Shown: positions 10,022 through 27,788 of the stretch, piece after piece
Numbering within the stretch: position 1 is the first letter of the stretch
Layout of the letters: each line of letters begins with the position of its first letter
Virus record (IMG/VR): IMGVR_UViG_3300045825_000032
Location: 1 to 53,134 of that record
Source: a virus
Taxonomy: Duplodnaviria > Caudoviricetes
DNA length: 53,134 nt
Reading direction: 5' to 3' (one strand)
Program-made: the position numbers and the translations under genes
The notes under the pieces: generated by a model
What the model was told of the DNA's origin: nothing
Seen by the model: only the letters and a program-made list of their open reading frames with translations
Database searches by the model: none

Positions 10022-10092
10022 ATAATCTCCATATTCCCCTGTGTCTTCATTATACCAACCTCCCTCTATTTTTGGGATAGCGTCCCATGGGC

Positions 10093-10812
10093 TTAATTGT
10101 CCGAGAAGTCTGGAAATTGCCATATGTCATTTTCCTTGTGGAAGATATATAAGCATTGACCATTCATAAGCATTTCTTCATCATTAGAATAAGCATCACG
10201 AACAGCTTCAAACATTTCCTGCTCTGTAGTCAGGCCGTCCAAGATTCGAGTTGCTTTGACTTTACCAATTCCAGAAACACCCTTGAGGCCATCTGTTGCA
10301 TCTCCGATAAGGAGTTGGTAGTAGAAAAATCTAAGTCCATCTTCGGCTGTGACACTAGCAAACTCTGCTGGTTTTGTCCAACGATTTTTACCCACAACGC
10401 CCCCTGATATTTCCCAACTGTAATGATTACCGGGGATTTGCCGAAGGTCTTTGTCCAAAGAGCAAATAACTGTGTTACGAATATCCCCACATTGGCTAAT
10501 TCCAAGAAGGTCATCTGCTTCACATCCGTCAGAACGTACCGCGTTATATTGTTGCTCAAGATAGTCTTTACATTGTGTAAGGTACTGAGGTCGGTCCATA
10601 GTAAGCCGATTGGCTTTATACTCTGGAAAGACTTGATACCTAAAATTATTCTCTCCTGAGAGAGCTACATACATTTCGCTGGCATGTGTGGCTAATAGAA
10701 TATCATCTATCAAACGCTCCATATAATAACGAGCGATTTCAAAGGTTTCTAGATTAGCAGCAGCGGCACACCTGTATGCAATAATATCCCCATCTATTAG
10801 GGCTTTAATCAT
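10093..10812 (-). CDS. 5'-3' exonuclease (T7 gp6/T5 D15-like)
   Basis: LIDGD, YKANR, EADD, SLDKD and GD.TDG..GV.GIG motifs. Confidence 0.92.
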   Translation of the reverse strand: MIKALIDGDIIAYRCAAAANLETFEIARYYMERLIDDILLATHASEMYVALSGENNFRYQVFPEYKANRLTMDRPQYLTQCKDYLEQQYNAVRSDGCEADDLLGISQCGDIRNTVICSLDKDLRQIPGNHYSWEISGGVVGKNRWTKPAEFASVTAEDGLRFFYYQLLIGDATDGLKGVSGIGKVKATRILDGLTTEQEMFEAVRDAYSNDEEMLMNGQCLYIFHKENDIWQFPDFSDN

Positions 10813-11065
10813 AACTTATAACGGACCCCCTTGACCTATGTGGGTACTCTCGGTACTCCATAAAACATCGGTAAACTCCATTCTTTTTAGCTATCCATGC
10901 TTCTTGTTTTACTGTATCCCTACAGTTTTCATGCCATTCCATGTGTTCATTAACATCCTTGGTGAGAGCAACCCCCATCCAAAATCCGGCTGTTCCAAAG
11001 GAAGCAGAACAAAGGATAAGGGTTAGTATATACAAGAAGTCCTGAACCTTACTCTTTAGGCTCAA
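10805..11065 (-). CDS. Hypothetical membrane protein
   Basis: N-terminal hydrophobic helix and operon position. Confidence 0.55.
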   Translation of the reverse strand: MSLKSKVQDFLYILTLILCSASFGTAGFWMGVALTKDVNEHMEWHENCRDTVKQEAWIAKKNGVYRCFMEYREYPHRSRGSVISYD

Positions 11066-11516
11066 GTACCCAGTCCGTGAACTGTTGAGCTACCTCGATT
11101 ACAGTATTAACATCAAGATGCTCAATGTCAGACCGCAATTTAATGTACTCGATAGCATTACTGATACTGGACTGTTTAATGATATACACTTGTTTACGAG
11201 CACGTTCTTCTGGAGTCTCATAGTTACTACCAGTGACTCGTGTAGTGCCTGTAGTTGAGGCAGGAGCACCTGTAGGAGCACTACCATCACTAATAGAGGC
11301 CCATTCATTGTAACCTTGGGCATTCTTGGTCAACTGAACGTCAACTTCTTGTCCTGCCAAAGTTTGTACTTGTTTATAGATGCTAGGATTAGCAAAATCC
11401 ATAATGTTCTGAGTACGGGGTTCACCATTATAGGTGTAAGCTACAATAGCTTTATTGTAACCCTTTGTACCTTTTTTAACGAACTCGTTATTAACACTGT
11501 TAATTGTAATTTTCAA
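11049..11516 (-). CDS. Putative single-stranded DNA-binding protein (TTG start)
   Basis: Beta-rich N-terminal half. It lies between the polymerase and the exonuclease and has its own strong promoter. Function is inferred. Confidence 0.4.
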   Translation of the reverse strand: MKITINSVNNEFVKKGTKGYNKAIVAYTYNGEPRTQNIMDFANPSIYKQVQTLAGQEVDVQLTKNAQGYNEWASISDGSAPTGAPASTTGTTRVTGSNYETPEERARKQVYIIKQSSISNAIEYIKLRSDIEHLDVNTVIEVAQQFTDWVLEPKE

Positions 11517-12235
11517 AGTTTAATTTCCTTCATTTCTAGTTTGTTCATCCCATACTGCACTTCGCAGGACAGGGGTAGTTTAAATTCATAGTCGAAGACT
11601 TGTTTACATAGTTTTGGTACATCTTCGATTGCTTGTTTTAAAAGCATACTAATATTATACACGTTTTTCTCTGGTGTGTCAAGTACTATCGAGTCATGGA
11701 TGGTAGAAATCATTAGAGCTTCCATACCAGACTCACGTAGTAGCTTTCTAGCTTGTAAACGTGCAAGCATAACCAAGTCTGCACCGAATCCCTGAACTGG
11801 ATAGTTTTTAATAATTGTCAGGGGCCACGGCTCAGTCTTGTTGTAGTCAGGGGTTATGGGATAGTGTCTCCCACTTGGGATAGTAAGCTTCCCTTCTTTT
11901 TGGGCGGTACGGAGGAGTTCTCCGTGCCATCGCTGGATTCCTTTATATTTAGAGTAATACTCGTCAATAATGCCTTGCCAGAACTGGACAGACTTAGATA
12001 CGTCTTGAAAGTCTGCATCGTTTGCATAAGAGTATGCGCTTCCACCGTAGATAAGTCTGAACTTAAAGATTTTAGCAATAAGTCTTCCTTGTTTCCCTTC
12101 ACCGAGTTTAAATCTATCACGATTTGCTTCATGTATATCTACCTTGTCAATAATTTCTTGGCACAGAACTTCATCCCCGGATAGCTCTGCGGCTACAACG
12201 ACCTCTAGCCCTTTTACGTCAGCGTTAATTAGTAT
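11513..12235 (-). CDS. Family A DNA polymerase, C-terminal catalytic part (probable ATA start)
   Basis: The frame is open upstream of the track ORF and contains motif A (NADVKGLE), motif B (RLIAKIFKFRLIYG), NYPVQG and motif C (HDS). An in-frame TAG lies at 12248-12250. Confidence 0.88.
   Translation of the reverse strand: MLINADVKGLEVVVAAELSGDEVLCQEIIDKVDIHEANRDRFKLGEGKQGRLIAKIFKFRLIYGGSAYSYANDADFQDVSKSVQFWQGIIDEYYSKYKGIQRWHGELLRTAQKEGKLTIPSGRHYPITPDYNKTEPWPLTIIKNYPVQGFGADLVMLARLQARKLLRESGMEALMISTIHDSIVLDTPEKNVYNISMLLKQAIEDVPKLCKQVFDYEFKLPLSCEVQYGMNKLEMKEIKL
11654..11682 (-). promoter_or_regulatory. Sigma70 promoter inside the polymerase CDS
   Basis: Exact TTGACA-N17-TATAAT. Confidence 0.85.
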
Positions 12236-12413
12236 TATTGTACTCCTCTATAAAACATTCTGCTTCCGCATCTGAATCATTTTCTTGAAGAATATATAAT
12301 TCCATTATCCAAAGTTTATTTATAGTATCAAGATATTTCTCTGCCGGGTTAGCTTTATACCATTCTATATCTTGAAATTCTTTTTTCCATCTAAATGAAA
12401 CAAATTTAGTCAT
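12225..12413 (-). CDS. Small hypothetical protein between the polymerase halves
   Basis: AT-rich 62-aa ORF overlapping both halves. Confidence 0.6.
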   Translation of the reverse strand: MTKFVSFRWKKEFQDIEWYKANPAEKYLDTINKLWIMELYILQENDSDAEAECFIEEYNNTN

Positions 12414-13590
12414 ATCTTGAGATTAAAAGTTGGTCAACTTGATTTCCAAAGTTCTGCATATTGGGATTACTACTGGATAATCGACCAGTTCTAGCCACTA
12501 CCTGATTATACTGTCCATGTAGAAACTCACCCCATCCCATCTTGTCTAGGAGTTCAGGAAGCTTCCCAAAATAAGTATCCATCAGTTTAGCTAACTCTGC
12601 TCGTTCCAATAGCAACTCAATAATCCGTCTATGTTCCTTTGTGGGTTTCTTTAATTGTTTTAGTACCCCTTCATTAGTTTCATAGATAGTAATTTCCTGA
12701 ATACTTCCGTCTGGTAAAGCCAGCTTCTTTTTAAGTTTTGTTTCAGTTTTAGGGAGAGGTCTGAACCTCCACCCACATTCATAGATAACAATGTTATGTC
12801 GAACCCGTGTATAAACTTCTCCCTTACGTGGGCCGCTTTTGTAGACTGTCTCTTCTTCTGTGGGTTCATCAATATCTATTTTCCCGCCATATAACAGACA
12901 GCTAAGATGTTGACCGCTGTCGAGATTAATAGCAGGAGTAGGGGAATGCGTGAGAAGCTCCTCTGTAATCGTCTGTAATTTCTTTGCCGTTTCGTTAGCT
13001 TTAACATTACATAACTCCTTATCAAATTTAATTCCATTCCATTCAATCTCTGCAAGAACCAACAAATCTAATCCCATAATCAGACAGAGTTTCTTCTGTT
13101 TCTCTGTCATTACCTCTTGCTGTTTGAGATAGAGTTTGTAGGTAAGGTCTACATCGAGGTCATTGTAGAACTGCAATTCAGTTACAGGAATGTCTGGAGT
13201 ATCTATCCCAAGGGACCAATACTCGGCAATTTTATCATCTTTGGAACCTAGTTCATACTTCGCAAGGCACTCATTAAGACTAGGATAAGTGCTCGTTTGA
13301 CCGGAGATAATGAACTCCGCCAGTTGGCAATCCCAGATGCGAGTTTTATCAGGTGGTACTATCCCATGCCTGCGAACCCATGTCAGGTCAAATTTAAGAT
13401 TAAATCCTACTACCAGACTTGCTGACTGCATTTCGAGACGTAGCTCATGCAGGAAGTCCGGGGCATCATAATAGTTAAATGATGGTGGATTATCATCTAT
13501 CTTCACTGAATAGGACACCAACTTGTTACTCGCCGTAAACGGGTGTCCTTTCAGATGTGTGGTTGTCTCTACGTCAAATGTTAATACAAT
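12406..13590 (-). CDS. Family A DNA polymerase, N-terminal 3'-5' exonuclease/thumb part (probable ATT start)
   Basis: ExoI (FDVET) lies upstream of the track start, followed by GFNLKFD, YNDLD and RTGRLSSSNPNMQN. AGGAGG lies 7 nt before the ATT at 13590. Confidence 0.88.
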   Translation of the reverse strand: MVLTFDVETTTHLKGHPFTASNKLVSYSVKIDDNPPSFNYYDAPDFLHELRLEMQSASLVVGFNLKFDLTWVRRHGIVPPDKTRIWDCQLAEFIISGQTSTYPSLNECLAKYELGSKDDKIAEYWSLGIDTPDIPVTELQFYNDLDVDLTYKLYLKQQEVMTEKQKKLCLIMGLDLLVLAEIEWNGIKFDKELCNVKANETAKKLQTITEELLTHSPTPAINLDSGQHLSCLLYGGKIDIDEPTEEETVYKSGPRKGEVYTRVRHNIVIYECGWRFRPLPKTETKLKKKLALPDGSIQEITIYETNEGVLKQLKKPTKEHRRIIELLLERAELAKLMDTYFGKLPELLDKMGWGEFLHGQYNQVVARTGRLSSSNPNMQNFGNQVDQLLISRYD

Positions 13591-13601
13591 ATTAAAACCT
13601 C

Positions 13602-13700
13602 CTATTCACTTTTAATAAGTTTACATTTTCTGCATTGGTATCTATTCATACCATAACCAGCAGACCCAACATATTCCCAATCATGTTTGCATTCAATCAT
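13602..13700 (-). CDS. 32-aa zinc-finger-like peptide (not in the ORF track)
   Basis: MIECKHDWEY...YQCRKCKLIKSE (CxH...CxxC), overlapping the helicase stop. Confidence 0.6.
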   Translation of the reverse strand: MIECKHDWEYVGSAGYGMNRYQCRKCKLIKSE

Positions 13701-14946
13701 AATTTTCAATGTCCTTAAAACGTGCAATCTCCGGTTCAATCAACACTTGCATACGAGCATGGCGCATATGAGGGATAGTATCTTCATCTCCTAACAATTT
13801 GTTCTTTGAAATGTTAAGGTAGCGAATATACTCTGCACCCTCTGCATGGGTATTACCCATACCTAGAATCCAATCTGCCTCTGCTTGTTTACTGGTCTTT
13901 GCATTAGCTACGTTATCCATAGTAAGCCACTTCTGGCCCTCCGCAGTACCGTCAGCCTGACATACACCAATAACCGGACAATATCGTTTAGCTAGTTCCC
14001 TAGCCCAGATATAGATTGCTCCTAGCCGTAGGTCTTCCCGGTCAGCATCAAAGCCCTTAATCTTGTCAATCTGGTCAAAGACAACAAGACTAGGGTTTAG
14101 TTGCTTACAAATAGCTTCGACTTTGGACCGACCTATTAACGCGTCGTCAACAAGCCGGAATGAATCAGTTGGAAATCCATGTTTGTACCTTTCAGTTGAA
14201 CCCAACAATTGTTCAAGTCGTACTCCGTGGAACCCTTGATGTACACGAAGCATGACCTCAGCACCAACCTGCTCGTTGTTGAACCATATAATCGGGCCAC
14301 GAGTATCAGGTAAATGTTGAAGCATATATGAAACTTCCGATGCAAGGAAAGTAGTTTTTCCTGACTCTGGTCTTGCGAAAAGAAATCCGAAGTTTCCTTT
14401 TCTAAGGCTTCCAAGGCTTTTGTTAAGGCAATCAAGTCTCCATCTAAGTCCTTTATCCTGATATACTTCGTGTAGAAGCTTCTCCAAATCCCCCGAAACA
14501 AACTCGAAATCTTCCGTCGTTTCTGGATTGTCATTGTTTAATTCCTCCAATAGTTCATTAACAGGTGTTAATTCCCCGGACCCAGTACTGAACTTAAAGG
14601 CTGCCTCAGACAGTTTTAAAGCCGTTTTACGGCGTTTAATCTGCTTAAGGATACCTACCCCTAGGGTGGGGTCTATTTGTGTCTCTGAGAGCGTTTTAAA
14701 TAGCTCCAGATAGATTCCTTTATCCACATCAGGGTATGCTGTGAAGAAAGCAGCCTGTAGGTCGTCTAAACTGAAGTCCTGTATGTAATCCCTATGCAGG
14801 GATTGTAACACCTTGTAAACATAATATAGTTCTTTATACTCATCCCTGATATGTTGCAGGTCAATAGAGTCAAAGTAGCTATCGTAGAACTCCCGTCTTA
14901 GTAGGAGTGTGATTAAGTCCCGTTCAGGGACGTATATAGTATTCAT
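13693..14946 (-). CDS. DnaB-like (SF4) replicative helicase
   Basis: Walker A ARPESGKT, VVFDQ, CQA and AEAD motifs. Confidence 0.9.
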   Translation of the reverse strand: MNTIYVPERDLITLLLRREFYDSYFDSIDLQHIRDEYKELYYVYKVLQSLHRDYIQDFSLDDLQAAFFTAYPDVDKGIYLELFKTLSETQIDPTLGVGILKQIKRRKTALKLSEAAFKFSTGSGELTPVNELLEELNNDNPETTEDFEFVSGDLEKLLHEVYQDKGLRWRLDCLNKSLGSLRKGNFGFLFARPESGKTTFLASEVSYMLQHLPDTRGPIIWFNNEQVGAEVMLRVHQGFHGVRLEQLLGSTERYKHGFPTDSFRLVDDALIGRSKVEAICKQLNPSLVVFDQIDKIKGFDADREDLRLGAIYIWARELAKRYCPVIGVCQADGTAEGQKWLTMDNVANAKTSKQAEADWILGMGNTHAEGAEYIRYLNISKNKLLGDEDTIPHMRHARMQVLIEPEIARFKDIENYD

Positions 14947-14995
14947 GTATTAATATATTATATTAATAATATATATTATTATATATTATATATAA

Positions 14996-15024
14996 AGTAT
15001 ATCATATTCCTTTCTATATGTCAA
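14996..15024 (-). promoter_or_regulatory. Sigma70 promoter for the helicase-polymerase genes
   Basis: TTGACA-N17-TATACT with an extended -10 TG. Confidence 0.85.
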
Positions 15025-15060
15025 GTACTGTTACAAATGTTACTTAGCCTGGGGTGATGG

Positions 15061-15453
15061 TTACGTTATCTCGCACAGAGGGGTTATTTTGTTCGCTGTG
15101 TATTCGGAGAAGTTTTTACAGTCGTATTTTTTCCCACAGTATTCTTTTTGCGACCCGTTGCTTTGGACGAATGTTGAGTAGCTTCTGCAAGTTCTGCAAT
15201 CTTGCGTAGTCGGTACTGCGGCAAGGGCGGTGCGGAGTTCATACGTTTTCTCAAATATTTCTCGCCCGATTGGGTATTCCTCACTGCTGACACCGCGCAT
15301 TATTAAGTCGTCAGGCAGGACGGGCGTTATCCCTTCTCTGGTGCTGGAGTGCGACTCTCCTAGCCTTTGCTTACGTACATGGACGATAACAGGAAGTTTC
15401 ACGCATGGAACCCAGCCTCCATTATCCAGCGCCTCGCGCAGTTTATTGCTCAT
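15061..15453 (-). CDS. Hypothetical protein (PGDYG-like)
   Basis: TREG...DLIMRGV..EEYPI..EIFEKTYE pattern. Confidence 0.55.
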   Translation of the reverse strand: MSNKLREALDNGGWVPCVKLPVIVHVRKQRLGESHSSTREGITPVLPDDLIMRGVSSEEYPIGREIFEKTYELRTALAAVPTTQDCRTCRSYSTFVQSNGSQKEYCGKKYDCKNFSEYTANKITPLCEIT

Positions 15454-15863
15454 TTCACTCTCCCTTCTATATCAGAAATGCTTTGTTTGTAACTCTTTAA
15501 CACCCGCTCAAAGTGCGGAAGGCAGGAATCGGTAACAGTTGCACCGAGGTAGTCTTTCGCTGCTTTCATATCCCGCATCGCCTGCTCAAGCAGCTTGTCC
15601 TGAGACTCTGCTTTGCATTGCTGGCAATCGTGCTGCACCCAATTGGTAGCGGTTAGCCAGCCGTGACCTTTATCACATTCCTTGAATACGATGGTGCAGT
15701 TCTTCATTGAAGGCGGAAGTTGCTTCTCAAGTTCAGCAACTCGGGCGCGGAGTTCGTCTATCTCTGCTTCCATGGCGTAGTTATCTTCCTGAATATCAAA
15801 GTCTGGTCCCTTTGAATGTGCTGGCAACCGTTCCGGCCAAGTTTTAATAGTGGTCATGGTCAA
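15450..15863 (-). CDS. Hypothetical protein
   Basis: Coupled ORF within a GC-richer island. Confidence 0.55.
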   Translation of the reverse strand: MTMTTIKTWPERLPAHSKGPDFDIQEDNYAMEAEIDELRARVAELEKQLPPSMKNCTIVFKECDKGHGWLTATNWVQHDCQQCKAESQDKLLEQAMRDMKAAKDYLGATVTDSCLPHFERVLKSYKQSISDIEGRVK

Positions 15864-16108
15864 TCCTTTGGGAGAAAATGCAACTTCATTCCAAGTGGCA
15901 ATTCTTTTGCTGAATACAAGCCAACGACAACTCTCGCCAATGGCTCATTTTCAAGAACAATTCCAATCGGCTCACCAACCCGCTTGATGTAGTCCTGAAT
16001 GGCTTTGGCGTAGCAGGCGGCTCCGTATTCGTGCATATGGTCATGCGAGAACGACAAGTTATCCGCATAATCACCCATATCTGCTGGCGGCAATTCTGGT
16101 AAGTTCAT
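15860..16108 (-). CDS. Hypothetical protein
   Basis: RBS-led ORF within a GC-richer island. Confidence 0.55.
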   Translation of the reverse strand: MNLPELPPADMGDYADNLSFSHDHMHEYGAACYAKAIQDYIKRVGEPIGIVLENEPLARVVVGLYSAKELPLGMKLHFLPKD

Positions 16109-16830
16109 GTTAAATACTCCTTAATTTGTTGAACACTATATTCCTTTGGGTCTTTCTCTGTTCTTATCCATCGGACAGGATGTTTAAGAAACGTCTGTAA
16201 ACGTGCAACTTTTGCTGGTAATAGTGTATATTGGTCGTCATCCAACCATAAAGTCACAGGTCTTTTTTCCTTAATTAACAGTGTTAATGCTAGGTCATGT
16301 ATATGTGTCCCAAACAGACATAATGCTTGAGTAACCTGACCTACCTTGTGAGCAGAAATCAGGTCCTCAACCAGCACGATGGGAAGGTCGGTCCTTGTTC
16401 CAATTAATTCTACATACTTGTGCCCATCACCCCAGAATCTCCACTTTCTTTTTTCTTTCGTCTTGTCCATTTCAAGGGACCTGCCGATGGAGAACCTGAT
16501 GGGGTTTCCAAAGGTGAGTACAAGCCTGTTGTGGGCTGGAGAATAGCCGGTGTAGGGCTTCCAGTAGGAGTAGGGGAGTCCATACTGGAGGAGCCACTTC
16601 CATCCCTCTGGGGGAATTTCTCTGGTGAAGTCACTAGGTAACACAGCTTTTTCATCATCTGGTATCCTTTCTTTAAGTTTGAAACGAGAGGAATGAGGAG
16701 GTAGTCGATGAAACCCACAACTAAAACAGTGAGAAGAACCATCATTATAAATAGCAAGATTATCTCCAGACCTATCCCGCCCATTAGCAATACATCTTGG
16801 ACATTCATCATATTTTAGAAACTTTGCCAT
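16105..16830 (-). CDS. DNA primase (zinc ribbon plus TOPRIM)
   Basis: CPRC...HCFSCG, LVEDLIS and WLDDD motifs. Confidence 0.85.
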   Translation of the reverse strand: MAKFLKYDECPRCIANGRDRSGDNLAIYNDGSSHCFSCGFHRLPPHSSRFKLKERIPDDEKAVLPSDFTREIPPEGWKWLLQYGLPYSYWKPYTGYSPAHNRLVLTFGNPIRFSIGRSLEMDKTKEKRKWRFWGDGHKYVELIGTRTDLPIVLVEDLISAHKVGQVTQALCLFGTHIHDLALTLLIKEKRPVTLWLDDDQYTLLPAKVARLQTFLKHPVRWIRTEKDPKEYSVQQIKEYLT

Positions 16831-16832
16831 GA

Positions 16833-17261
16833 TTACCACTCATCATCACTACCCTCCTCATCCCCGTTATAGAAAGCCAAGTAGGTATTAATCTCTTCTT
16901 CTGGCAGGAAACGATTATATGTAGTTACCAAATGACCAGTGTTAGCATTCTTAAACTCTACCATAGGAACCCAACCAGACTCTAACAAGTAGTCCTGTAG
17001 AATCGGATATTGCTTTGTACCATTAGCACCATAACTTGATACTAGGGAGCATTGGAGTAGATACCCCCCGCCCGAATACTGGTTATTCCCACTAACAATA
17101 TCTACCACATAGTCTATGAGCGTTTCTTCAAACTTGGTACTATTCCATTTAGGAGGTATTACTTTATCAAGGAAGGTACCATACTCCTCATTAAAGTTCC
17201 CTACTTGGATAATCCCACAACAATTATCATCAATACCAGCATAAAATCTAATATTATTCAT
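16833..17261 (-). CDS. Hypothetical protein with NCCG motif
   Basis: ORF in operon. Confidence 0.6.
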   Translation of the reverse strand: MNNIRFYAGIDDNCCGIIQVGNFNEEYGTFLDKVIPPKWNSTKFEETLIDYVVDIVSGNNQYSGGGYLLQCSLVSSYGANGTKQYPILQDYLLESGWVPMVEFKNANTGHLVTTYNRFLPEEEINTYLAFYNGDEEGSDDEW

Positions 17262-17463
17262 TATCTTCTCCTTCCTCTACATCACTAAAATCTTCCATGT
17301 CAATCGCTTCTGTAGCTTCCAAGTCTTCCCGTGTAACTACAGGAATATCAGAGGATACATCACGGAAGCATCGGTTACACAAATCAATGAATTCTCCAGT
17401 GACTCCATGTTTGCGGGTACTTTCAAAATCATTAAGGTTTTTATCACAAGCAACACAGCGCAT
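17254..17463 (-). CDS. Small zinc-finger protein
   Basis: CxxC...CxxC with an acidic tail. Confidence 0.7.
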   Translation of the reverse strand: MRCVACDKNLNDFESTRKHGVTGEFIDLCNRCFRDVSSDIPVVTREDLEATEAIDMEDFSDVEEGEDNE

Positions 17464-19497: not shown

Positions 19498-19498
19498 A

Positions 19499-20701
19499 TT
19501 ATGTATTCCTTTCTATTTCATATTCATTTAATTCTCTAATTGCTGCTGTATATTGAGCATCTGCCGCCTGTATTTCCGCTATATTACCCGCCAACATTCT
19601 CCGAGTCTGATGCTCCCTTGCTAGTAATTCCCTTTGATTCATGGGCCTTGGAGCTGGAGGGATAACATACTCTGTTCCAGTATGGCCTGTTAGTTCCGTT
19701 CCGTCTATGCGTCTAGCCGCTGTATCCCAACGCACAGCATTGTATTGTGTTCCTGCCGCAACACCTAGATTATGTAGACCTCCCTCCCTTAACCCCAGTA
19801 TTGCTTCTTCTTTAGAGATAGCTTTCTTTTTAGGAGGAACCACTACTTCCCGTTTATCTGGGTCAAATCCTACCAATGAGTACTTAGCTTGAATAACTCC
19901 ATCCTGTAGAGCGAGGCGATACTTATCATTGTAAGGAAGGAACCCATTAAAGACAGAATCAAAATACCGATTGTATTGAGAGCTATCATTCAATGTTGTA
20001 ATATCAGTAAAGATTTCATCAAAGGAAGATGATTTAGCCTTATACAGCAGGTGGCTAATAATATTCAACCATGTAGTAATCTTTGCTATATCCGCCGTAC
20101 CGTGCATATGTCGAAACTCTACTGTCCCCTGCTTAAGAATTGGTAGAAGATTCAATGCGGTATATTTTTGCCAGCGTTTTAATGTATCTGTTCCCTCTGT
20201 ATACAGCCCATTAATAAGTTTGTGATTCATTAGACATTGGGACCAAGGAATACAGTAGAGATTGGTGTCTCGATGCCCTCCTACAAACTCAAACAGAACC
20301 TGCTCAATAGTCTGGTAGCACAGAGCAAGACTAGATAACTGGTCCACAGTCATATCCACAACATTAGCATGAACATGGATACTACAGCGGTCAGTGAAAT
20401 TAGTCTCTGTGAATCCAGTCTGAGTGTAGAAGTAGTTAACACTGTTAATAAGACTTATAGCATTCATGGGCTTGGAGATAAACTCAAAGGCCCTACCACG
20501 AAGGGAAGAGTCATTAGTCACCAACCATTGATGAGCATCCAATGCAGCATGGTATGAATCAGCTCCATGACGACAATTTTCTACCTCAATCTCCATACCA
20601 AGAATCTGAGCTTGGTGAGGAATCTCTGGAGTCTTGCTGGTATATGTCAGAGGCATCTTGATGCCATAGATACTACCGATATTCGGTTCAGGTTTTTTCA
20701 T
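19499..20701 (-). CDS. Putative amidoligase (glutamine synthetase-like COOH-NH2 ligase)
   Basis: GMEIEVE, DSSL, EFIS, SIHVH, KY.ALN and TVEFR motifs. Confidence 0.8.
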   Translation of the reverse strand: MKKPEPNIGSIYGIKMPLTYTSKTPEIPHQAQILGMEIEVENCRHGADSYHAALDAHQWLVTNDSSLRGRAFEFISKPMNAISLINSVNYFYTQTGFTETNFTDRCSIHVHANVVDMTVDQLSSLALCYQTIEQVLFEFVGGHRDTNLYCIPWSQCLMNHKLINGLYTEGTDTLKRWQKYTALNLLPILKQGTVEFRHMHGTADIAKITTWLNIISHLLYKAKSSSFDEIFTDITTLNDSSQYNRYFDSVFNGFLPYNDKYRLALQDGVIQAKYSLVGFDPDKREVVVPPKKKAISKEEAILGLREGGLHNLGVAAGTQYNAVRWDTAARRIDGTELTGHTGTEYVIPPAPRPMNQRELLAREHQTRRMLAGNIAEIQAADAQYTAAIRELNEYEIERNT

Positions 20702-21308
20702 ATTGATGAATCTCCATAGTTTGTTCACAATTACGAAGGGCATCTTTAATTTCAGTAAGGAACATATTCCCAGATTTATTTAATTCGATTCGTCCAAGGT
20801 GCTGAAGGACCGACCCAACAATCTCCTTAAATACACAGATACCAAAGGGTGTTATTGCAATACTAGGTGAGATTGCATAGCAATTAAATTTTCCTACTGT
20901 TTCCTTAAAAGGAAGAGCCTTCTCATACACAGGTAAGAGACTAGAAAAATCAATATGCACAGGATTAAATCCTCTCTCTGTTACTTTATATGCACGCATA
21001 TTAGCAGAACATACTCCTCGTTTAAATTGACGACTGGCGTGGCGTTCCATAAAAAACAACCCGTCAGAAGTATTGTAGAAAGCAGAGGCCGGAGGAAGGA
21101 ACTCAAATCCAATCTCTCGTGCAATATCAGCATTTACCTGATACTTAGTTCCCTTTTTATCGGAAAAGCTCACAGTTTTTTCCTCTTGGTCAATATGCTC
21201 CAAGAGAGCAAGGAACTTACGAGTTCCATCCACAGTATAGAAACCAAAGGTTCCTTCATAGCGCTGACGGAAATCAGCAGATGTTGCTGAGAAGAATTTC
21301 TCAAACAT
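20688..21308 (-). CDS. Hypothetical protein within the ligase cluster
   Basis: GGAGG precedes the ATG at 21308. Confidence 0.65.
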   Translation of the reverse strand: MFEKFFSATSADFRQRYEGTFGFYTVDGTRKFLALLEHIDQEEKTVSFSDKKGTKYQVNADIAREIGFEFLPPASAFYNTSDGLFFMERHASRQFKRGVCSANMRAYKVTERGFNPVHIDFSSLLPVYEKALPFKETVGKFNCYAISPSIAITPFGICVFKEIVGSVLQHLGRIELNKSGNMFLTEIKDALRNCEQTMEIHQYEKT

Positions 21309-22089
21309 GGATAACCTCCAATCCAAATTTAGATACCATTTCTTGAGCCAATCGTTTATCATTATTGTTAATTGTGTTGACGATGCTATCTCGATATTCA
21401 TCGAAAGGAAACTGTGCTTCCACAGCAGAGATTGCTCGTTCTGTATTTCTCCATACCCATTCAATCAAACGATCGTCAAAAATCCAGAAGTTTGACAGAG
21501 TACGATACTCAAGGCCATAAGGCTTATACCGGACTGCTCCAGCTTTACCATACAACAGCTTGCGTTTGTCGCCTTTGTCCATTAGGACCGACCCAATTCC
21601 TAGGTGCATATCCATAGCCTTACCTAATTGGTCTGCATTAACAGTGTTAACATCCTCCAAACCAATATGAATGTGTCCCCCACAAGAGCGAAGAGTTTTA
21701 TCTTCTGCCTCTGGTCGAGGATTCTTCTTACCCGTCCAAACATTGTAATCAGGGTCACAGCCAAAATTCAAGGCCGCATCCGATTGCAATTCAGATTCAG
21801 GGAAAGAAGCAGCACTCTCATTAATAATCTGGAAACCATAACGGTTTTTGATTACTCCAGAGAGGAAATCCAAGGTGGATTTAATATGACTAACATATTC
21901 TTCTGCACCAGATGCAGGAGGAATATTGAATTCCATAGCCACATTATCTTCCTGAACAGCAAATCCCTTCCCAAGTGGAAGGTCCAGAGGAAATGCCTTA
22001 CTACCACCAATCAAACCCACAGAAGATTTGAGATTACCCTGCAAATCCGCCATGAATACTTCTGGGTCACAGCCAAGTTTAAATTTCAT
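21301..22089 (-). CDS. phiEco32-like COOH-NH2 ligase type 2
   Basis: LGCDPEVF, QEDNV, FGCDPD, GGHIH and EYRTLSNFW motifs. Confidence 0.88.
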   Translation of the reverse strand: MKFKLGCDPEVFMADLQGNLKSSVGLIGGSKAFPLDLPLGKGFAVQEDNVAMEFNIPPASGAEEYVSHIKSTLDFLSGVIKNRYGFQIINESAASFPESELQSDAALNFGCDPDYNVWTGKKNPRPEAEDKTLRSCGGHIHIGLEDVNTVNADQLGKAMDMHLGIGSVLMDKGDKRKLLYGKAGAVRYKPYGLEYRTLSNFWIFDDRLIEWVWRNTERAISAVEAQFPFDEYRDSIVNTINNNDKRLAQEMVSKFGLEVIHV

Positions 22090-22450
22090 ACACCTCACCC
22101 TTTCCTTTGTAAATGTAAATGGTTAATCGACGCGGTTTACTTGGATAATTCGGATTACTAATCACCGGACTCTGATGAATCAAGTACTCAGAAAATCCTA
22201 AAGTCTCCAATTGTTTTTTTGCAATAGGTTGCATATCTGTTAGAATAAAAATCAATGTGGTATCAGAGATTTTTAATAGCTCCAATAACTCCAACCAAGT
22301 ATTAACTCTTGGAGCATCAATTGGTATCTCAAAAATATTATAACCCTTTGGAATAATCTGTACATCTGTATAGACCTTCTCAGAAAATACACTAATAATC
22401 ATGTTAACCGTTCCAATACATAATATGAAGTTTACAATCGGTATCCTCAA
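22079..22450 (-). CDS. Hypothetical protein
   Basis: ORF in operon; start uncertain. Confidence 0.5.
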   Translation of the reverse strand: MRIPIVNFILCIGTVNMIISVFSEKVYTDVQIIPKGYNIFEIPIDAPRVNTWLELLELLKISDTTLIFILTDMQPIAKKQLETLGFSEYLIHQSPVISNPNYPSKPRRLTIYIYKGKGEVYEI

Positions 22451-22751
22451 GAGTTACCACCACTTTTTCTGCATCTTTGGTAACATCCTCTGGAGGATAT
22501 AGTTTTGGAGGTACTTTATCTGGTCCCCATATGGTATCAGGGTCTTCAGTTACTCCTAAAATTCGATTTATCTTTTGGTATACCTCTAAACTATGACCAA
22601 CAGTGAGACTTCCACAACAATTTGAAAGACTCCCATAATCGAGTAGTAATCCGAAAGGAACTTTCTTCCTTTTCTTATAACCATGTAAAGTTATAGCACT
22701 CCTCTGATTAAATTTTGCTAAGATATCCTCTACTGCTTTGCGGTTTGACAT
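22404..22751 (-). CDS. Hypothetical protein with NCCG motif
   Basis: ORF in operon. Confidence 0.55.
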   Translation of the reverse strand: MSNRKAVEDILAKFNQRSAITLHGYKKRKKVPFGLLLDYGSLSNCCGSLTVGHSLEVYQKINRILGVTEDPDTIWGPDKVPPKLYPPEDVTKDAEKVVVTLEDTDCKLHIMYWNG

Positions 22752-23389
22752 AGGCGTTCCTTCATAGTTTCAAACACATACTGAGTAGCCTCAGTCCGTC
22801 CATCCATCATTTCAGGATGCCATTGGATAGCGAATCCTTTTACATCTTTGAAATAGACATACTCAGGTTCGTGCCAATCAGGACTTGGAGGAGTCCATAC
22901 TTGGTCGTCTTTATAAATATAATGAGAACTCAAGTTATTGGGTAGCCAAGCCAATAGCTCGTGGTTTGTCTTCTCCAATCCTGCCATCATTTGATGGTGA
23001 ATAGAGTTTGTGCTGAAGGACCGACCATTAACAGTGTTAACTGTGTGTCGCCCACCATGACCGCGTACATCTTGGATAAGATAACCACCAGCCAAGGCAC
23101 ATAACATTTGAGCACCACGACAGATACCAATGATAGGAATACCCATCTCTTTAGCACGTTGCATCAAGTCCCACTCAGCATGGTCCCGTGTAGGATAAGG
23201 ATAAGTAGACTTGGATTGGGGATGCTTATAGGTCCACGTACCAATGTCTGACCCACCCCATACTACCAACATGGAATCCTTTTCCTTCAAATCCTCTGGC
23301 AATCGTGCTGTAACAACAATCTTAACCAGAGCATCAAAGGGATGGGCATCCCCACCACTAAGCGCACTATATAGAATTTTTGCAATCAT
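22730..23389 (-). CDS. Class I glutamine amidotransferase / peptidase C26 (PuuD-like)
   Basis: GG.DI, GICRGAQ, NSIHHQ and QWHPE motifs. Confidence 0.9.
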   Translation of the reverse strand: MIAKILYSALSGGDAHPFDALVKIVVTARLPEDLKEKDSMLVVWGGSDIGTWTYKHPQSKSTYPYPTRDHAEWDLMQRAKEMGIPIIGICRGAQMLCALAGGYLIQDVRGHGGRHTVNTVNGRSFSTNSIHHQMMAGLEKTNHELLAWLPNNLSSHYIYKDDQVWTPPSPDWHEPEYVYFKDVKGFAIQWHPEMMDGRTEATQYVFETMKERLCQTAKQ

Positions 23390-23679
23390 ACAGGCAAGAT
23401 TCCTTCCTTAGAAATTTCTTTCAATGTCATTTCCCCTGCTGGGCGAATACCAGAACGATATGGTTTATAGGCTACCACTTCCATCCCCGGATTCCATTCT
23501 GTTAACAGTGTTAATGCACCATCAACAAACTTTTCATCCACTTCATACAGACGAGGAGTACCCCCATCATCAAAACCAACCTTATCTGTTGTAATGTAAT
23601 GACAATGCCGGTCAAGTCCCTCCAAATAGGTTTCCGCCCTATTGTTAGGAGTGTTAATCAGAATCAATACTTTAGCCAT
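23386..23679 (-). CDS. Hypothetical protein
   Basis: AGGAG RBS followed by ATG. Confidence 0.65.
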   Translation of the reverse strand: MAKVLILINTPNNRAETYLEGLDRHCHYITTDKVGFDDGGTPRLYEVDEKFVDGALTLLTEWNPGMEVVAYKPYRSGIRPAGEMTLKEISKEGILPV

Positions 23680-23680
23680 T

Positions 23681-24022
23681 TTACGCTCCTATAAAACGAA
23701 GTTTAGTTTCATACGTCTTTGCATACATAGTCTGCCCAGCCGCATTCCTTTTCTCCAGCTCTACTGTAATGTATGCTGGAAGGGACCCTTCGGGTCCTCC
23801 TCTTGTCCATGTTACTTTATCCAAGTCCCTTTCAATGTTAGAGATACGACCATACACACGATTCTTCTTTGGTTTCTTGAACACAACCCGCTCCCCTACT
23901 TTAAGAACACAGCGGTTTAGGTGATGTTCCAACCGTGCCTTCCTACTCTCTAAGGTAAGCAGACCGGAGGAGTTCTGGGTCAGGTCCAGAGCCTTCGGTT
24001 TGAGCAGTTGTGTTGTTATCAT
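23681..24022 (-). CDS. Hypothetical protein (SH3/KOW-like)
   Basis: LKVGERVVF...GRI pattern. Confidence 0.55.
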   Translation of the reverse strand: MITTQLLKPKALDLTQNSSGLLTLESRKARLEHHLNRCVLKVGERVVFKKPKKNRVYGRISNIERDLDKVTWTRGGPEGSLPAYITVELEKRNAAGQTMYAKTYETKLRFIGA

Positions 24023-24386
24023 ATTTCTTTTCTTCCTCAGTTAGTTGACGCATATCATCAGGACAACGCCAAATTAAAGTACTACCGCGACTGAACCTAT
24101 CACCCAATACCCGAAGCCCCAAAGCTTTTGGAATTTTACGAACAGGGTCAATCTCAGCATCATAATGTAACTCTTGAATGTATTCCACAATATATGTAAA
24201 TGGTTCATGCCCTATTACATTAGGGAGCATCCTAAGAGTAACCTTATCCCCTATCTTGAAGGATTGCTTTACCGTTTCAATCCATCGAGAATAAACCAGC
24301 TTCCCCCAAGTAAGGTCTTCCAAGGTTCGTGTAGGTAAAGGTGCAGGGAGCATCCTAGGATGTTGTTGGTGGATGTGATTATACAT
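23943..24386 (-). CDS. Hypothetical protein
   Basis: FKIGDKV pattern; start revised to follow the upstream ORF. Confidence 0.5.
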   Translation of the reverse strand: MYNHIHQQHPRMLPAPLPTRTLEDLTWGKLVYSRWIETVKQSFKIGDKVTLRMLPNVIGHEPFTYIVEYIQELHYDAEIDPVRKIPKALGLRVLGDRFSRGSTLIWRCPDDMRQLTEEEKKYDNNTTAQTEGSGPDPELLRSAYLRE

Positions 24387-24399
24387 CCCCACTACCTTA

Positions 24400-24588
24400 C
24401 TAACAAACGACTTGTAGGGTTTCCGTAGTTCTTGTGTAATCATAGTTATTAACAGTGTTAATGAAAGCGTCTTCCCCGCTGGAGATATTACGCAGTTGAT
24501 GGGGTGCAGGACCGACCTTCTGTGGACCCTTTGGCATTTCGTGACACCAATCGCAATCCTGCATAATACAATGTTCACAGTGTTTCAT
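24400..24588 (-). CDS. Small Cys-rich protein
   Basis: CxxC...CxxC with an ATGA overlap. Confidence 0.5.
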   Translation of the reverse strand: MKHCEHCIMQDCDWCHEMPKGPQKVGPAPHQLRNISSGEDAFINTVNNYDYTRTTETLQVVC

Positions 24589-24863
24589 GATGGGTCTTTC
24601 TTAGTGGAGACAAGGGCAATACTTGGACTAGTCCCTTGTCGTGGTTCAAATGATATACTCAAATGATTACAAATACGATTAATCATTTCAATCGCAGTCA
24701 TTTTAAAACGAGTATCATGGTAACACATACCACTATACCCATTCCAGTCACCTACATAAGTCTTAGAGGCATAACTAAGCTCTACCACCTTTGCCTCTAA
24801 TTCCCTATAGGAAGTTTTAAGAGATTCAAACTCTTTTCTAGAAACTAATCCAAACATACTCAC
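24585..24863 (-). CDS. Hypothetical protein
   Basis: Coupled ORF. Confidence 0.55.
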   Translation of the reverse strand: MSMFGLVSRKEFESLKTSYRELEAKVVELSYASKTYVGDWNGYSGMCYHDTRFKMTAIEMINRICNHLSISFEPRQGTSPSIALVSTKKDPS

Positions 24864-25162
24864 TCCTTCGGAAGAAAATACTTGGTGCTGAAATCAAAGC
24901 TACCATGATGCCAGCTAGGGCTATCATTAGCTTCAGCAATCCGCGCCAATTCTTTTGGCAGATAGCGCAGAGGTAGCACCTTAACCGGTGCTTTAGAGGC
25001 CATGATACGGCCCGTATTGCGACAGTAATTATCTTTCTTACTGACAGGGGTGAATTGAACATCCACTTGTCCTACCTGTTCAGTATTTCCAGTGACCTTT
25101 ACGGTAGCACCACCTTTTTCCTCGTGATAACTCCGCAAATGAAAATAACGTATAACTTGCAT
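24860..25162 (-). CDS. Hypothetical phage protein
   Basis: RBS and S.KDNY.R..GR pattern. Confidence 0.6.
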   Translation of the reverse strand: MQVIRYFHLRSYHEEKGGATVKVTGNTEQVGQVDVQFTPVSKKDNYCRNTGRIMASKAPVKVLPLRYLPKELARIAEANDSPSWHHGSFDFSTKYFLPKE

Positions 25163-25171
25163 GATTAATCC

Positions 25172-25543
25172 TTACTTAATAAAGTTTTTCAATTCCAGCA
25201 ACAGCCATACTTTTGGAGCAAACCAAACAAGTAGCATATTGTTTAGATTATAGAGAATGAAAGGAACTCCGCATACTAAAGTGATTCCCCCCCCAAAGAG
25301 GGTAGCAGCACCACGGTCCACAGAATCTTTTATCTGTTTGACACTGCGGGAAGTTAGAATAAATCCAGCAACCAAGATAAAAATACCAACCAAAACCCAG
25401 AGGATTGTGGCTACCCTACCAAAAGCAAGGTACTGTAAGGCAATATCAGGTAATTGTTCAAGAATAAATGTTCCTGTTGTTTGAATACTACTTTGAATTG
25501 CATTGAGAATAGCTACCAGTTTGTTTTGTAAAGTTTCATTCAT
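25172..25543 (-). CDS. Membrane protein
   Basis: Two to three hydrophobic helices and an AGGAG RBS. Confidence 0.65.
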   Translation of the reverse strand: MNETLQNKLVAILNAIQSSIQTTGTFILEQLPDIALQYLAFGRVATILWVLVGIFILVAGFILTSRSVKQIKDSVDRGAATLFGGGITLVCGVPFILYNLNNMLLVWFAPKVWLLLELKNFIK

Positions 25544-25569
25544 TTCATTACTCCTATTAACAGTGTTAA

Positions 25570-26055
25570 TTAATCGTCTGAGGAACTAGAACTATCGCTA
25601 GAACTAGAATCAGACCCGCTATCCCAAGACCCAGAGGAACCACCACCAGCACCATCGCCACCACCACCAGATTGAAATGATGGTGTATCATCCGGTGGCG
25701 TGTAGGACCGACCTTCTGAATGATGATGTAGTACTTCATCCACTAATGCACCCACTACCATACCAGTAACAAAATCATTATTAGATGATTGTACTGGTAC
25801 AGGAGTTGGTTCTGGTACATAGGGTCTGGGTCTAGACACCACCCTACGGGGCTTGTCTTGGGCTTTATCTGGGGCCAGTGTGGGCTTATATGGAGTCAAT
25901 CTCCGCACTTGCTTAACACCCCCAAGTTTTGTGGGCAATGGCAATGGAATGTTCTTTTTCTTTTCTTCCTCAATACATCGCATAGTCTCACGATGTTTAA
26001 GGTAGATACCACACCCCACGCAGAGCAATAGAAACAACACAATCAATTCAAACAT
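25570..26055 (-). CDS. Membrane-anchored protein with a Ser/Gly/Asp-rich tail
   Basis: N-terminal TM helix, Pro-rich linker and low-complexity tail. Confidence 0.65.
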   Translation of the reverse strand: MFELIVLFLLLCVGCGIYLKHRETMRCIEEEKKKNIPLPLPTKLGGVKQVRRLTPYKPTLAPDKAQDKPRRVVSRPRPYVPEPTPVPVQSSNNDFVTGMVVGALVDEVLHHHSEGRSYTPPDDTPSFQSGGGGDGAGGGSSGSWDSGSDSSSSDSSSSSDD

Positions 26056-26056
26056 T

Positions 26057-26416
26057 TCAAACTCCTTTCTTAATTAACTGAACATCTTTCAACACACCAG
26101 TCTCACCATCAAAGATGGCCTTGATGTTTGGACCAGCCCCCGTAGGGTATGCACCACCGAGGTGGAGATAAAGAGTCTGAACAACATCAGGCTTTGGCTC
26201 AGGCTTGATACGATAGGTTTCTGAAATATTCCAAGTTGGACTATTCCTAACAACATCTCTCCAATCTCCACCAGAACACTGGTACTGAATCTTAGCACCA
26301 TCAGCCCATGCTTTAATCAATTCAGCATGAACATGGGGAGGATTGGGATAACCCTCTTTGCATCCCACATCATGCCTCTTTGCTTGGTCGCCGGTGAGTT
26401 GAATACATTTACACAT
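26057..26416 (-). CDS. Hypothetical phage protein
   Basis: HAELIKAWADGAKIQ...YRIKP pattern and an RBS. Confidence 0.65.
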   Translation of the reverse strand: MCKCIQLTGDQAKRHDVGCKEGYPNPPHVHAELIKAWADGAKIQYQCSGGDWRDVVRNSPTWNISETYRIKPEPKPDVVQTLYLHLGGAYPTGAGPNIKAIFDGETGVLKDVQLIKKGV

Positions 26417-26600
26417 GATTAACTCCTTTAATTAACACTGTTAACTGCTTTGCCATAGCTTGAGTCGATGGTCGGTCCTTACTTCCATGTGCCGGTCGAA
26501 TGTTACCGGAATGAATCAATACCTCACGAATAGCATTATCGGTACGACTGGGCAATGGTTTTTTGCCCGCATGACGATTGTTCAGATAGAAATGTTTCAT
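26409..26600 (-). CDS. Small basic early protein
   Basis: AGGAG RBS followed by ATG. Confidence 0.55.
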   Translation of the reverse strand: MKHFYLNNRHAGKKPLPSRTDNAIREVLIHSGNIRPAHGSKDRPSTQAMAKQLTVLIKGVNHV

Positions 26601-26758
26601 AATACAACTCCTTGTTTAAGTTTAAAATCCTCAACAGCACACTCAAGATAGATACGACGAGGGAATATTGAGGCAGCTCCAATAGTATTGTAGCCCTTCT
26701 CATATATTCTAACTCGTTTACTCAAGTAAGAAAATGGAATATGAATAGAATCACTCAT
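26597..26758 (-). CDS. Small early protein (53 aa, not in the ORF track)
   Basis: MSDSIHIPF...KQGVVL, coupled to neighbours on both sides. Confidence 0.5.
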   Translation of the reverse strand: MSDSIHIPFSYLSKRVRIYEKGYNTIGAASIFPRRIYLECAVEDFKLKQGVVL

Positions 26759-27041
26759 GCTCTTCTTCCTCTTCTTCAGTTACTTCCGTGTCAAACTCAC
26801 CTCGTATTAGTCCTGCAGTATACTCCCGATGTAGAACTTGCCAAAAGATTGCCCCTTGTGGGGTAGAACTAAAGGACATAGAATCAGACAAATCTCTCGC
26901 ATCCAAATCCAGATTGTTTGGATTCCTCTTATCATAGAGTACCCTTTTTAAAGCTGTAAACAATTGAGCTTTAGAGATACTGGTTATGTGTGGTGACACA
27001 TTCCGAAACAACCTTGATTCCACAATACTAGGTTTCTTCAT
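26751..27041 (-). CDS. Early protein with an acidic tail
   Basis: GGAG RBS and F..TPQG..FW pattern. Confidence 0.6.
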   Translation of the reverse strand: MKKPSIVESRLFRNVSPHITSISKAQLFTALKRVLYDKRNPNNLDLDARDLSDSMSFSSTPQGAIFWQVLHREYTAGLIRGEFDTEVTEEEEEEHE

Positions 27042-27066
27042 GTTAATTCTCCATTAACAGTGTTAA

Positions 27067-27267
27067 TTAAAACCAGAAGGCCATTGGAGAACGAAGACAT
27101 AGTGGTAAATCCCAGTATCTTTTTGGACATTGAAGATGAAAACCACCAGCACCCACACCCCAATTAATAGGGATAAATCCCCATTTATAGAAAGTCCATT
27201 GCCCCCTATCTTGTCCTTCAATCACCAATGTATCCCAATTGGAGAAGCAGTATTTAATCTTGTTCAT
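27067..27267 (-). CDS. Small early protein
   Basis: AAGGA RBS followed by ATG. Confidence 0.5.
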   Translation of the reverse strand: MNKIKYCFSNWDTLVIEGQDRGQWTFYKWGFIPINWGVGAGGFHLQCPKRYWDLPLCLRSPMAFWF

Positions 27268-27279
27268 GATGGTCGGTCC

Positions 27280-27390
27280 TTATTTCATCCAAATAATCTT
27301 CACACGCTTGGAAGAACCTTTGATTTCCTTCGCAACACGATAGGTAGAAACACAGCCAATCTCACGGGAACCACGGAAAATGTGATACAT
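27280..27390 (-). CDS. 36-aa early peptide (not in the ORF track)
   Basis: MYHIFRGSREIG...KIIWMK preceded by AGGTG. Confidence 0.45.
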   Translation of the reverse strand: MYHIFRGSREIGCVSTYRVAKEIKGSSKRVKIIWMK

Positions 27391-27477
27391 ATTAACACCT
27401 GTTAATTAAGTTAAACAAAATAGAATACATCGGAATGATGCACCCCAATATGCCTACATAATAGGCATATGGTGATG

Positions 27478-27594
27478 TTATCGCCCGTACAAACGATTAA
27501 AGAATCCATCTTTAGTTTTCTGTGGCACACAGCAAAACGATGGGTAATCCTCATGATAGAGGGTTAATAAAGCCTGATATTGTGCATCACTCAT
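27478..27594 (-). CDS. 38-aa early peptide (not in the ORF track)
   Basis: MSDAQYQALL...RLYGR preceded by AGGGGA. Confidence 0.45.
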   Translation of the reverse strand: MSDAQYQALLTLYHEDYPSFCCVPQKTKDGFFNRLYGR

Positions 27595-27644
27595 GTTATC
27601 CCCTTTAAGATTTTCATATCATACCTTTCATTTAATTAACAGGG

Positions 27645-27761
27645 TTAACGGGCCAGCGCATAAGGTCGGTCCTTATTTACCCAACTATACAACTTGGGGT
27701 TAGCCTCCATCATGGCGCAACGTACAGCATACCGCCATAGATTTATTTGCCCGATAGTCAT
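27645..27761 (-). CDS. 38-aa early peptide (not in the ORF track)
   Basis: MTIGQINLWRY...KDRPYALAR preceded by GGAGG. Confidence 0.5.
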   Translation of the reverse strand: MTIGQINLWRYAVRCAMMEANPKLYSWVNKDRPYALAR

Positions 27762-27788
27762 GGGATAACCTCCAAAAAGTATAGACGT

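Follow-up and report, generated by a model that had tools for sequence, protein, structure and literature searches.

Introduction

Site-specific single-strand interruptions (nicks) in phage genomes have been known for about fifty years, from T5, the phiKMV-like phages and tf, and the portions of the two reports on which we draw for the tf-type system (Glukhov 2012, PMC3517423; Dougherty 2025, PMC11780129) assign to them neither an enzyme nor a function. In the Pseudomonas putida phage tf, sequencing stops, together with fragments that appear on alkaline denaturation and can be sealed by ligase, located 14 nicks at TACT/RTGMC, all on the top strand, and the same portion of the report counts only three further single-substitution variants of the 9-mer, none of them nicked (PMC3517423). 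In Rembedalsseter, a relative of tf, Nanopore reads end at 13 of 13 WACTRTGAC sites, on one strand, and this word is common to 61 phages, in whose genomes it clusters in a corresponding region (PMC11780129). Here we report that the IMG/VR virus record IMGVR_UViG_3300045825_000032, a complete virus record of 53,134 bp that was analysed over its whole length (hereafter, the window), carries 12 exact copies of a short asymmetric word, GGACCGACC, all of them in its early (replication and metabolism) arm, and that related phages carry sister words on a preferred strand of the same arm. We consider these copies to be, probably, the recognition sites of a phage nicking system that is kin to the nick-associated motif of tf/LUZ24-like phages.

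Results

Exact copies of GGACCGACC are found seven times on the + strand of the window (starts at 14125, 18191, 20807, 21585, 23018, 24509 and 25705) and five times on the - strand (10589, 16386, 26470, 27271 and 27664), precisely the copies, positions and orientations listed in an earlier note on this DNA. That note had roughly estimated the chance expectation at less than one copy per genome, and this estimate holds: the mean was 0.14 copies (and the largest count one) in 100 dinucleotide shuffles, and 0.18 copies are expected under a third-order Markov model. Within the 40 listed early open reading frames (ORFs; ORF 20688-21464 is absent from this list), nine copies were observed vs. a mean of 0.33 and a maximum of three in 1000 synonymous-codon shuffles, a control that the note had itself proposed. 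Transcription of the early arm (5325..29286) runs leftward, on the - strand, and begins at a perfect sigma-70-type promoter (29286-29258). All copies fall within 10589-27672, i.e., the structural arm is empty as had been claimed; given that the early arm makes up 43.6% of the genome, such confinement of all 12 copies has a chance probability of 4.7e-5.

The word is also sharp, since the 12 exact copies are accompanied by only three one-mismatch forms (4219, 7894 and 38054), which is the background level; forms with at most one mismatch, exact copies included, number 15 vs. 4.9 expected. An A directly precedes 10 of the 12 copies, and the flanks are otherwise without conservation. The symmetric pattern GGWCSGWCC returned the same 12 matches and no further variant, and we therefore rejected a palindromic reading and regard the site as asymmetric and present in two orientations. 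The nine copies within the listed early ORFs use all three reading frames, three copies per frame, and are read through as MDRP, GRSK, RTDL, PVGP, GSVL, GRSF, RSVL, GRSY and KDRP. Together with the enrichment beyond chance and the limit to the early arm, this use of all frames means that selection acts on the DNA, as the earlier note had proposed; its count of eleven copies in coding sequences was slightly generous (nine to ten by our count, or 11 if the + strand ORF 27130-27405 is included). Finally, the gaps between copies, from the promoter outward, are 393, 801, 765, 1196, 1491, 1433, 778, 2616, 1805, 2261 and 3536 bp, that is, the spacing increases away from the early promoter (Spearman 0.85, p 8e-4).

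To place the window among known phages, we compared it with several collections. Megablast of window positions 10000-28000 against 50,697 phage records returned no match, and a search of metagenome contigs with the window amidotransferase gave 15 pattern matches, none of which was confirmed. Of seven sequencing runs matched to the window, two from wetland may be its source, another wetland run contains 0.53 of the sequence words, and the other four contain 0.12 or less. The closest cultured phages are Alcaligenes phage vB_Af_QDWS535 (hereafter, QDWS535), which has both arms in common with the window (TerL 50%, helicase 45%), and the Methylophilales phages MEP401/402 (helicase 41%), which are filed under Zobellviridae. 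A search of IMG/VR with the helicase returned 80 loci of 45-63% identity (designated by L numbers below). GGACCGACC itself was present in none of the 80; the top enriched 9-mers of many of these loci are instead sister words, TGACCGACC/TGACCGTCC, TGATCGACC, TGATAGACC and TGATAGTCC, with an additional variant, read as GTCGGTCAT, in L050 and L055.

These sister words are strongly polar. At least four copies of one TGAYMGWCC core were found in 18 of the 80 loci, with 117 copies antisense to the early genes and six sense, and mixed strands among the 18 were limited to L021 (5:2), L035 (2:3) and L011 (5:1). Within the early arm, where the sister motifs are located, their density peaks at the arm start and declines downstream. 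Among complete relatives, four of five have nearly all their copies on a single strand; most of these copies are in one arm-sized stretch, the one that contains the helicase-centred loci, and one or two are found outside it. The strands are mixed in the remaining relative (G004). QDWS535 carries 11 copies of TGATCGACC and five of TGATAGACC, all 16 on the + strand with its early genes on the - strand, and the early arm holds 15 of the 16, most closely packed near its start. Accordingly, the lack of strand bias described in the earlier note is true of the window (7:5) but not of its relatives, and using it as an argument against polar sites does not hold, given that the element is polar at the family level.

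The recognised word also appears to change as a set. The close relatives L041 (with TGATCGACC) and L063 (with TGATAGACC) have three homologous positions with similar flanks (2405, 3777 and 11927 in L041; 2774, 4150 and 11780 in L063) at which they differ in the word, and thus sites change in concert. In a helicase tree (a quick IQ-TREE search), the dialects group by clade, and the nearest kin of the window, L009-L012, use TGACCGACC. The element is, therefore, a conserved, polar and drifting feature of the clade, to which the 7:5 mix of the window is the exception. We also observed tandem copies at the very start of the early arm in L063 (three copies 13 bp apart, 576-610) and in L041 (two copies 31 bp apart, 290-329). 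A separate subclade (L084, L087, L068, L072, L074, L083 and L077) has neither the family motif nor the ligase cluster described below, and is enriched in a palindromic 8-mer, GTTTAAAC, often at homologous positions (in L084, 11 copies in 21 kb vs. about 1.2 expected).

Comparison with tf provided the link to a system in which nicks have been mapped. As a positive control, our de novo k-mer scan returned TACTGTGAC as the top word of tf. Twelve of the 14 nicks annotated in the tf record are in its early arm, and the gaps between nicks widen downstream (Spearman 0.69, p 0.019), like those between the copies of the window. The tf genome has a convergent late arm, with terminal repeats between the arm starts, and its early arm encodes COOH-NH2 ligase, amidoligase, amidotransferase, ATP-grasp, primase/helicase, polymerase, exonuclease and phosphoesterase. 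Seven of the early-arm genes of the window have collinear homologues in tf by tblastn: COOH-NH2 ligase (41%), amidoligase (27%), amidotransferase (36%), ATP-grasp (27%), primase (33%), 5'-3' exonuclease (29%) and phosphoesterase (39%).

The scan was then extended to another five cultured or assembled phages that have the ligase cluster (four are classified in Zobellviridae). In Vibrio phage 1.208.B the word is AATACTATCAT; 10 of its copies are on the early-arm sense strand, where they crowd toward the arm start, and two are in the late arm. The oyster-derived phage T5S1 has AATGGTATCATC, with six copies on the early-arm sense strand and two elsewhere; and the scan gave no clear word for IME180 and KIT05. 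Klebsiella phage Klyazma (L150-L152) carries a different polar word, CCCCTGTA (13 copies, 12:1 by strand, including both terminal repeats), which we rejected as an instance of the same phenomenon because it is spread genome-wide.

Written on the early-gene sense strand and in one register, the words form a series that runs from TACTGTGAC in tf and TACTATGAC in LUZ24/PaP3 (from the portion of PMC3517423 on these phages), via ATACTATCAT in Vibrio phage 1.208.B, ATGGTATCAT in T5S1, GGACTATCAA in L075 (a variant also written GGACTATCA), GGTCTATCAA in L023, L039 and L063, GGTCGATCA in QDWS535 and L041 (in QDWS535 also written GGTCGATCAT) and GGTCGGTCA in L011, L024, L032, L056 and L066 (in L011 also written GGTCGGTCAY), to GGTCGGTCC in the window (also written GGTCGGTCCT). 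In short form, the steps are TACTATGAC, TACTATCAT, GGACTATCA, GGTCTATCA, GGTCGATCA, GGTCGGTCA and GGTCGGTCC. One or two letters separate neighbours in the series, and none of the words changes strand with respect to the early genes.

At the level of single copies, we call family orientation the one in which the word is antisense to the early genes, so that the early-gene sense (-) strand reads GGTCGGTCC, and inverted the one in which that strand reads GGACCGACC. Starting at the arm start, the first three copies met are inverted: that at 27664..27672 (-), which is intergenic and the nearest of all to the arm start; that at 27271..27279 (-), 4 nt upstream of the ATG of ORF 27067-27267; and that at 26470..26478 (-), in the small ORF 26409-26600. 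Seven of the following copies are in family orientation, on the + strand, i.e., 25705..25713 in ORF 25570-26055, 24509..24517 in ORF 23943-24578, 23018..23026 in the amidotransferase-like ORF 22730-23389, 21585..21593 in the COOH-NH2 ligase gene (21301-22098), 20807..20815 in ORF 20688-21464, 18191..18199 at the 3' end of the glutamine amidotransferase gene (18157-19497), and 14125..14133 inside the DnaB-like helicase gene, for which a nick GGTCG/GTCC is predicted on the - strand. The two remaining copies are again inverted, at 16386..16394 (-) inside the primase gene (16105-16839) and at 10589..10597 (-) inside the 5'-3' exonuclease gene (10093-10812).

In addition to the genes just named, the early arm holds ribonucleotide reductase, deoxynucleoside monophosphate phosphatase, metallophosphoesterase, RusA-like resolvase and family-A DNA polymerase genes. 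The polymerase is split over two ORFs (12406-13521 and about 11516-12247, within 11516-13521 on the - strand), the second of which aligns from residue 1 of QDWS535 gp31 and is without ATG, GTG or TTG until its last 87 codons. The polymerase is likewise split in QDWS535 and MEP402, and an Rfam search of the window returned a tRNA only, with no intron in the gap of ~170 nt between the two ORFs. Positions 17463-23389 (-) encode an ATP-grasp protein, a class-II glutamine amidotransferase, an amidoligase, a COOH-NH2 ligase and a second amidotransferase-like protein. This ligase cluster recurs in tf/LUZ24-like, phiEco32-like and many Zobellviridae phages (the ligase matched 314 phage records), and we know of no product assigned to it.

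The late arm runs rightward and encodes terminase, portal, structural proteins and endolysin. In a comparison of eight complete genomes, QDWS535 was the sole source of homologues for most of the late-arm ORFs (29500-53134 and 1-5150, +); a few small ORFs had further matches in 1.208.B, MEP402, Klyazma or IME180, and weak TerL matches were seen in MEP402 and IME180. Zobellviridae and tf-like phages share the early arm, which makes the genome a mosaic of two modules.

Between the arms lie two perfect TTGACA-17-TATAAT promoters with TG extensions, which are divergent (29286-29258 on the - strand and 29375-29403 on the + strand) and flank a TA-repeat region rich in inverted repeats (29159-29272). 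Positions 29159-29403 are likely a control region, and perhaps an origin or terminal-repeat region. A tRNA-Trp gene with anticodon CCA (29557-29631, +) is found just downstream of the rightward promoter, before the terminase genes. The record does not define the physical ends of the genome, because the 127-bp repeat at the ends of the window has the length of the assembler overlap.

A second word is enriched in the window, a 13-bp palindrome, TTAACAGTGTTAA, with 11 copies within 11491-27822, two more at 44795 and 52133, and degenerate forms at 27634 and 28503. The word CAGTGTTAA occurs 13 times vs. 0.47 expected. Palindrome copies at 25561, 26432 and 27058 are just upstream of ribosome-binding sites of early genes, several others are within early ORFs, and one begins 3 nt downstream of the GGACCGACC copy at 23018. 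The palindrome is probably a phage promoter or operator; its counterpart in QDWS535 is AATATTAGGA/CTAACATTAGGA, with 8-10 copies.

Discussion

The observed enrichment, sharpness, early-arm limit, density gradient, family-wide polarity, motif series and synteny with tf are, in our view, best accounted for if GGACCGACC is the version, in the phage of the window, of the nick-associated motif of tf/LUZ24-like podoviruses. Under this hypothesis, which we regard as probable, the reader of the word would be a phage-specified, sequence-specific nicking activity that is made during infection and leaves fixed single-strand interruptions in the packaged genome, at sites that are dense at the start of the early arm and thinner downstream, and, across the clade, the recognised word and its reader would have drifted together, step by step. 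Aligning the word with TACT/RTGMC of tf predicts a cut at GGTCG/GTCC, which would fall on the - strand for the seven copies in family orientation and on the + strand for the five inverted ones. Neighbouring copies of opposite orientation are at least 765 bp apart, and therefore such cuts would not be expected to cause a double-strand break. The protein-binding site suggested in the earlier note stands in a generic sense only, the closest documented counterpart being the recognition site for site-specific nicking in tf and its relatives.

The likeness to the tf-type system covers several features of the sites. Similar to tf, Rembedalsseter, LUZ24 and PaP3, as described in the portions of PMC3517423 and PMC11780129 used here, the word is an asymmetric 9-mer that occurs in ~9-14 exact copies per 45-53 kb, near-variants being all but absent, and, like the tf-type motif, it shows minor degeneracy within a genome. 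Its copies are concentrated in the early arm and thin from the start of that arm, with the same early-gene sense strand when in family orientation, and the early arm itself is collinear over the seven homologues. On the other hand, the 61 Pseudomonas phages keep one word according to the same sources, whereas the clade of the window has at least six variants; the structural arm of the window is unrelated to that of tf; and nicks are mapped in tf but predicted in the window. Coliphages T5 and BF23 and the phiKMV-likes also have fixed, sequence-associated single-strand breaks on one virion strand, as would be predicted here, but these are unrelated groups without gene context common with the window, and the consensus words given for them, R/GCGCRGG and CGACNNNNNCCTA/CTCCGG, are different, longer or looser (from the portion of PMC3517423 that compares them). 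Nick-less mutants of T5 are stated to be viable in the portion of the literature drawn on.

It is important to note that several points weigh against this hypothesis. We infer, rather than observe, the nicking of sites in the window and its clade, the position of the cut, and the phage origin of the enzyme. The word of the window is identical to that of tf at only 3 of 9 positions, and matches to the tf-type word are no more frequent in the window than expected (3 vs. 3.9); therefore, common descent rests on the intermediates, on the shared strand, arm and gradient, and on synteny. The window breaks the one-strand rule, including at the three copies nearest the arm start. No clear family motif was found in 60 of the 80 loci (many of them short), or in MEP402, IME180 and KIT05. 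When 36 early-arm ORFs and five late-arm ORFs were scanned against Pfam and PHROGs, the only nucleases recovered were a FEN-type exonuclease and the RusA-like resolvase, and no ORF of the window had a phyletic pattern matching that of the motif over eight complete genomes. Even for tf-type phages, the portion of PMC11780129 drawn on leaves nickase and function unassigned. The same scans also recovered a metallophosphoesterase, which we rejected as a nickase candidate: its homologue was not detected in L044 and L082, which bear the motif, and is present in MEP402, which does not. Similarly, the ligase cluster tracked the motif over the 80 loci but is present in IME180, KIT05 and Klyazma, which lack it, and hence was rejected as a marker.

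Alternatively, the sites might be bound, and not cut, by a phage-encoded DNA-binding protein that would time or silence early transcription, mark the arm for replication or packaging, or organise the first-ejected DNA. A word that is sharp, under DNA-level selection, restricted to one arm and, in the window, tolerated in both orientations would be consistent with such a protein, and the tandem copies at the arm start of L063 and L041 resemble a loading or nucleation site. However, the near-absolute polarity of the relatives is unexpected for a simple duplex binder, the chain of motifs and the synteny point to tf, whose sites are proven to be cut, and the Pfam and PHROGs scans of early-arm ORFs identified no DNA-binding protein. 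We therefore consider this alternative unlikely.

The strongest rival, to which we nevertheless give a still lower probability, is that the words are Chi-like sites of the host, at which a helicase-nuclease of the RecBCD/AddAB type, entering at the end on the side of the early arm, would be stopped in its degradation and recombination would be started. The geometry is shared: in the examples given in part of PMC12315714, E. coli phage LLS has 23 Chi sites, 20 of them in active orientation and concentrated at one end, and all 32 Pseudomonas Chi sites of the P. aeruginosa phage MD8 share a strand, so that a short, asymmetric, enriched and strongly polar word is densest near one end and its density falls from there. 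If the ends of the genome lie between the arms, as in tf, TGAYMGWCC would be on the strand with its 3' end there, which corresponds to the Chi-active orientation. Yet LLS and MD8 are temperate lambdoids without a recombination module in which the word is the host Chi and near-Chi words are frequent (Chi-rich genomes being, according to the same part of PMC12315714, also rich in near-Chi words), as opposed to the one-mismatch forms in the window, which are at background. The known proteobacterial Chi words listed there, GCTGGTGG and GCTGGCGC, are, by eye, unlike any TGAYMGWCC/GGWCKRTCA variant, although the host of QDWS535 is a proteobacterium. Further, the equivalent word in tf, which has the same architecture, is a proven nick site and differs from the Pseudomonas Chi (as far as the cited portions go); the related phages use at least six variants, with different words at homologous sites in one pair of close relatives; and, of the 12 copies of the window, five would be inactive, among them the three nearest the end. 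A search of genome contigs with the GroES of QDWS535 for candidate hosts matched Campylobacter and one Bifidobacteriaceae metagenome-assembled genome, none of the matches being Alcaligenes or betaproteobacterial.

Finally, the copies could be thought of as lagging-strand priming sites of a T7-like primase, or as promoters or RNA-level signals of early transcripts. GGTC is the recognition core of the T7 primase and is contained in the sense-strand word of the window, the spacing of 0.4-3.5 kb between copies is within the size range of Okazaki fragments, and the sites of the relatives would be on the lagging-strand template for a fork that moves with early transcription. We rejected these readings as highly improbable, given that the late arm, which needs replication as well, has no copies, that the L075 variant GGACTATCA lacks GTC, that 10 of the 12 copies are intragenic, that five of the 12 point the other way (and are thereby excluded as promoters or mRNA signals), and that late-arm copies of relatives (tf, G002, G003 and the TGATAGACC copy at 15789 of QDWS535) keep the genome strand and not the transcript strand.

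Hence, we favor the hypothesis of a phage nicking system, and the dialects described above invite a wider version of it, which we put forward tentatively. The tf-type motif may be only one dialect of a co-evolving system of nickase and site that would extend over tf/LUZ24-like phages, Zobellviridae and a large uncultured clade of freshwater and marine phages, with the one-strand rule relaxed in the lineage of the window. In such a system, the 9-letter target would be rewritten one or two letters at a time, with homologous sites changing in concert, and the lineage of the window would have kept site number, early-arm confinement and density gradient. If so, function would depend on the graded density of nicks from the first-expressed (and probably first-ejected) end, and not on which strand is cut.

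With respect to what has been described for tf/LUZ24-like systems, a new word, its many dialects and the relaxed polarity in the genome of the window are probably new. The survey in PMC11780129, the only one of its kind that we found, states that the tf-type word lacks enrichment outside one cluster of 61 Pseudomonas phages, and our literature search on Zobellviridae and nicks found nothing relevant. If the hypothesis favored here is true, the nick phenomenon would extend to a broad and mostly uncultured clade that has a cultured member, QDWS535, open to direct test. The series of motif dialects would then provide a handle on the enzyme, since covariation of motif letters with protein residues could point to the nickase, and the features of the site pattern that the function needs can be read from genomes with relaxed polarity, such as that of the window.

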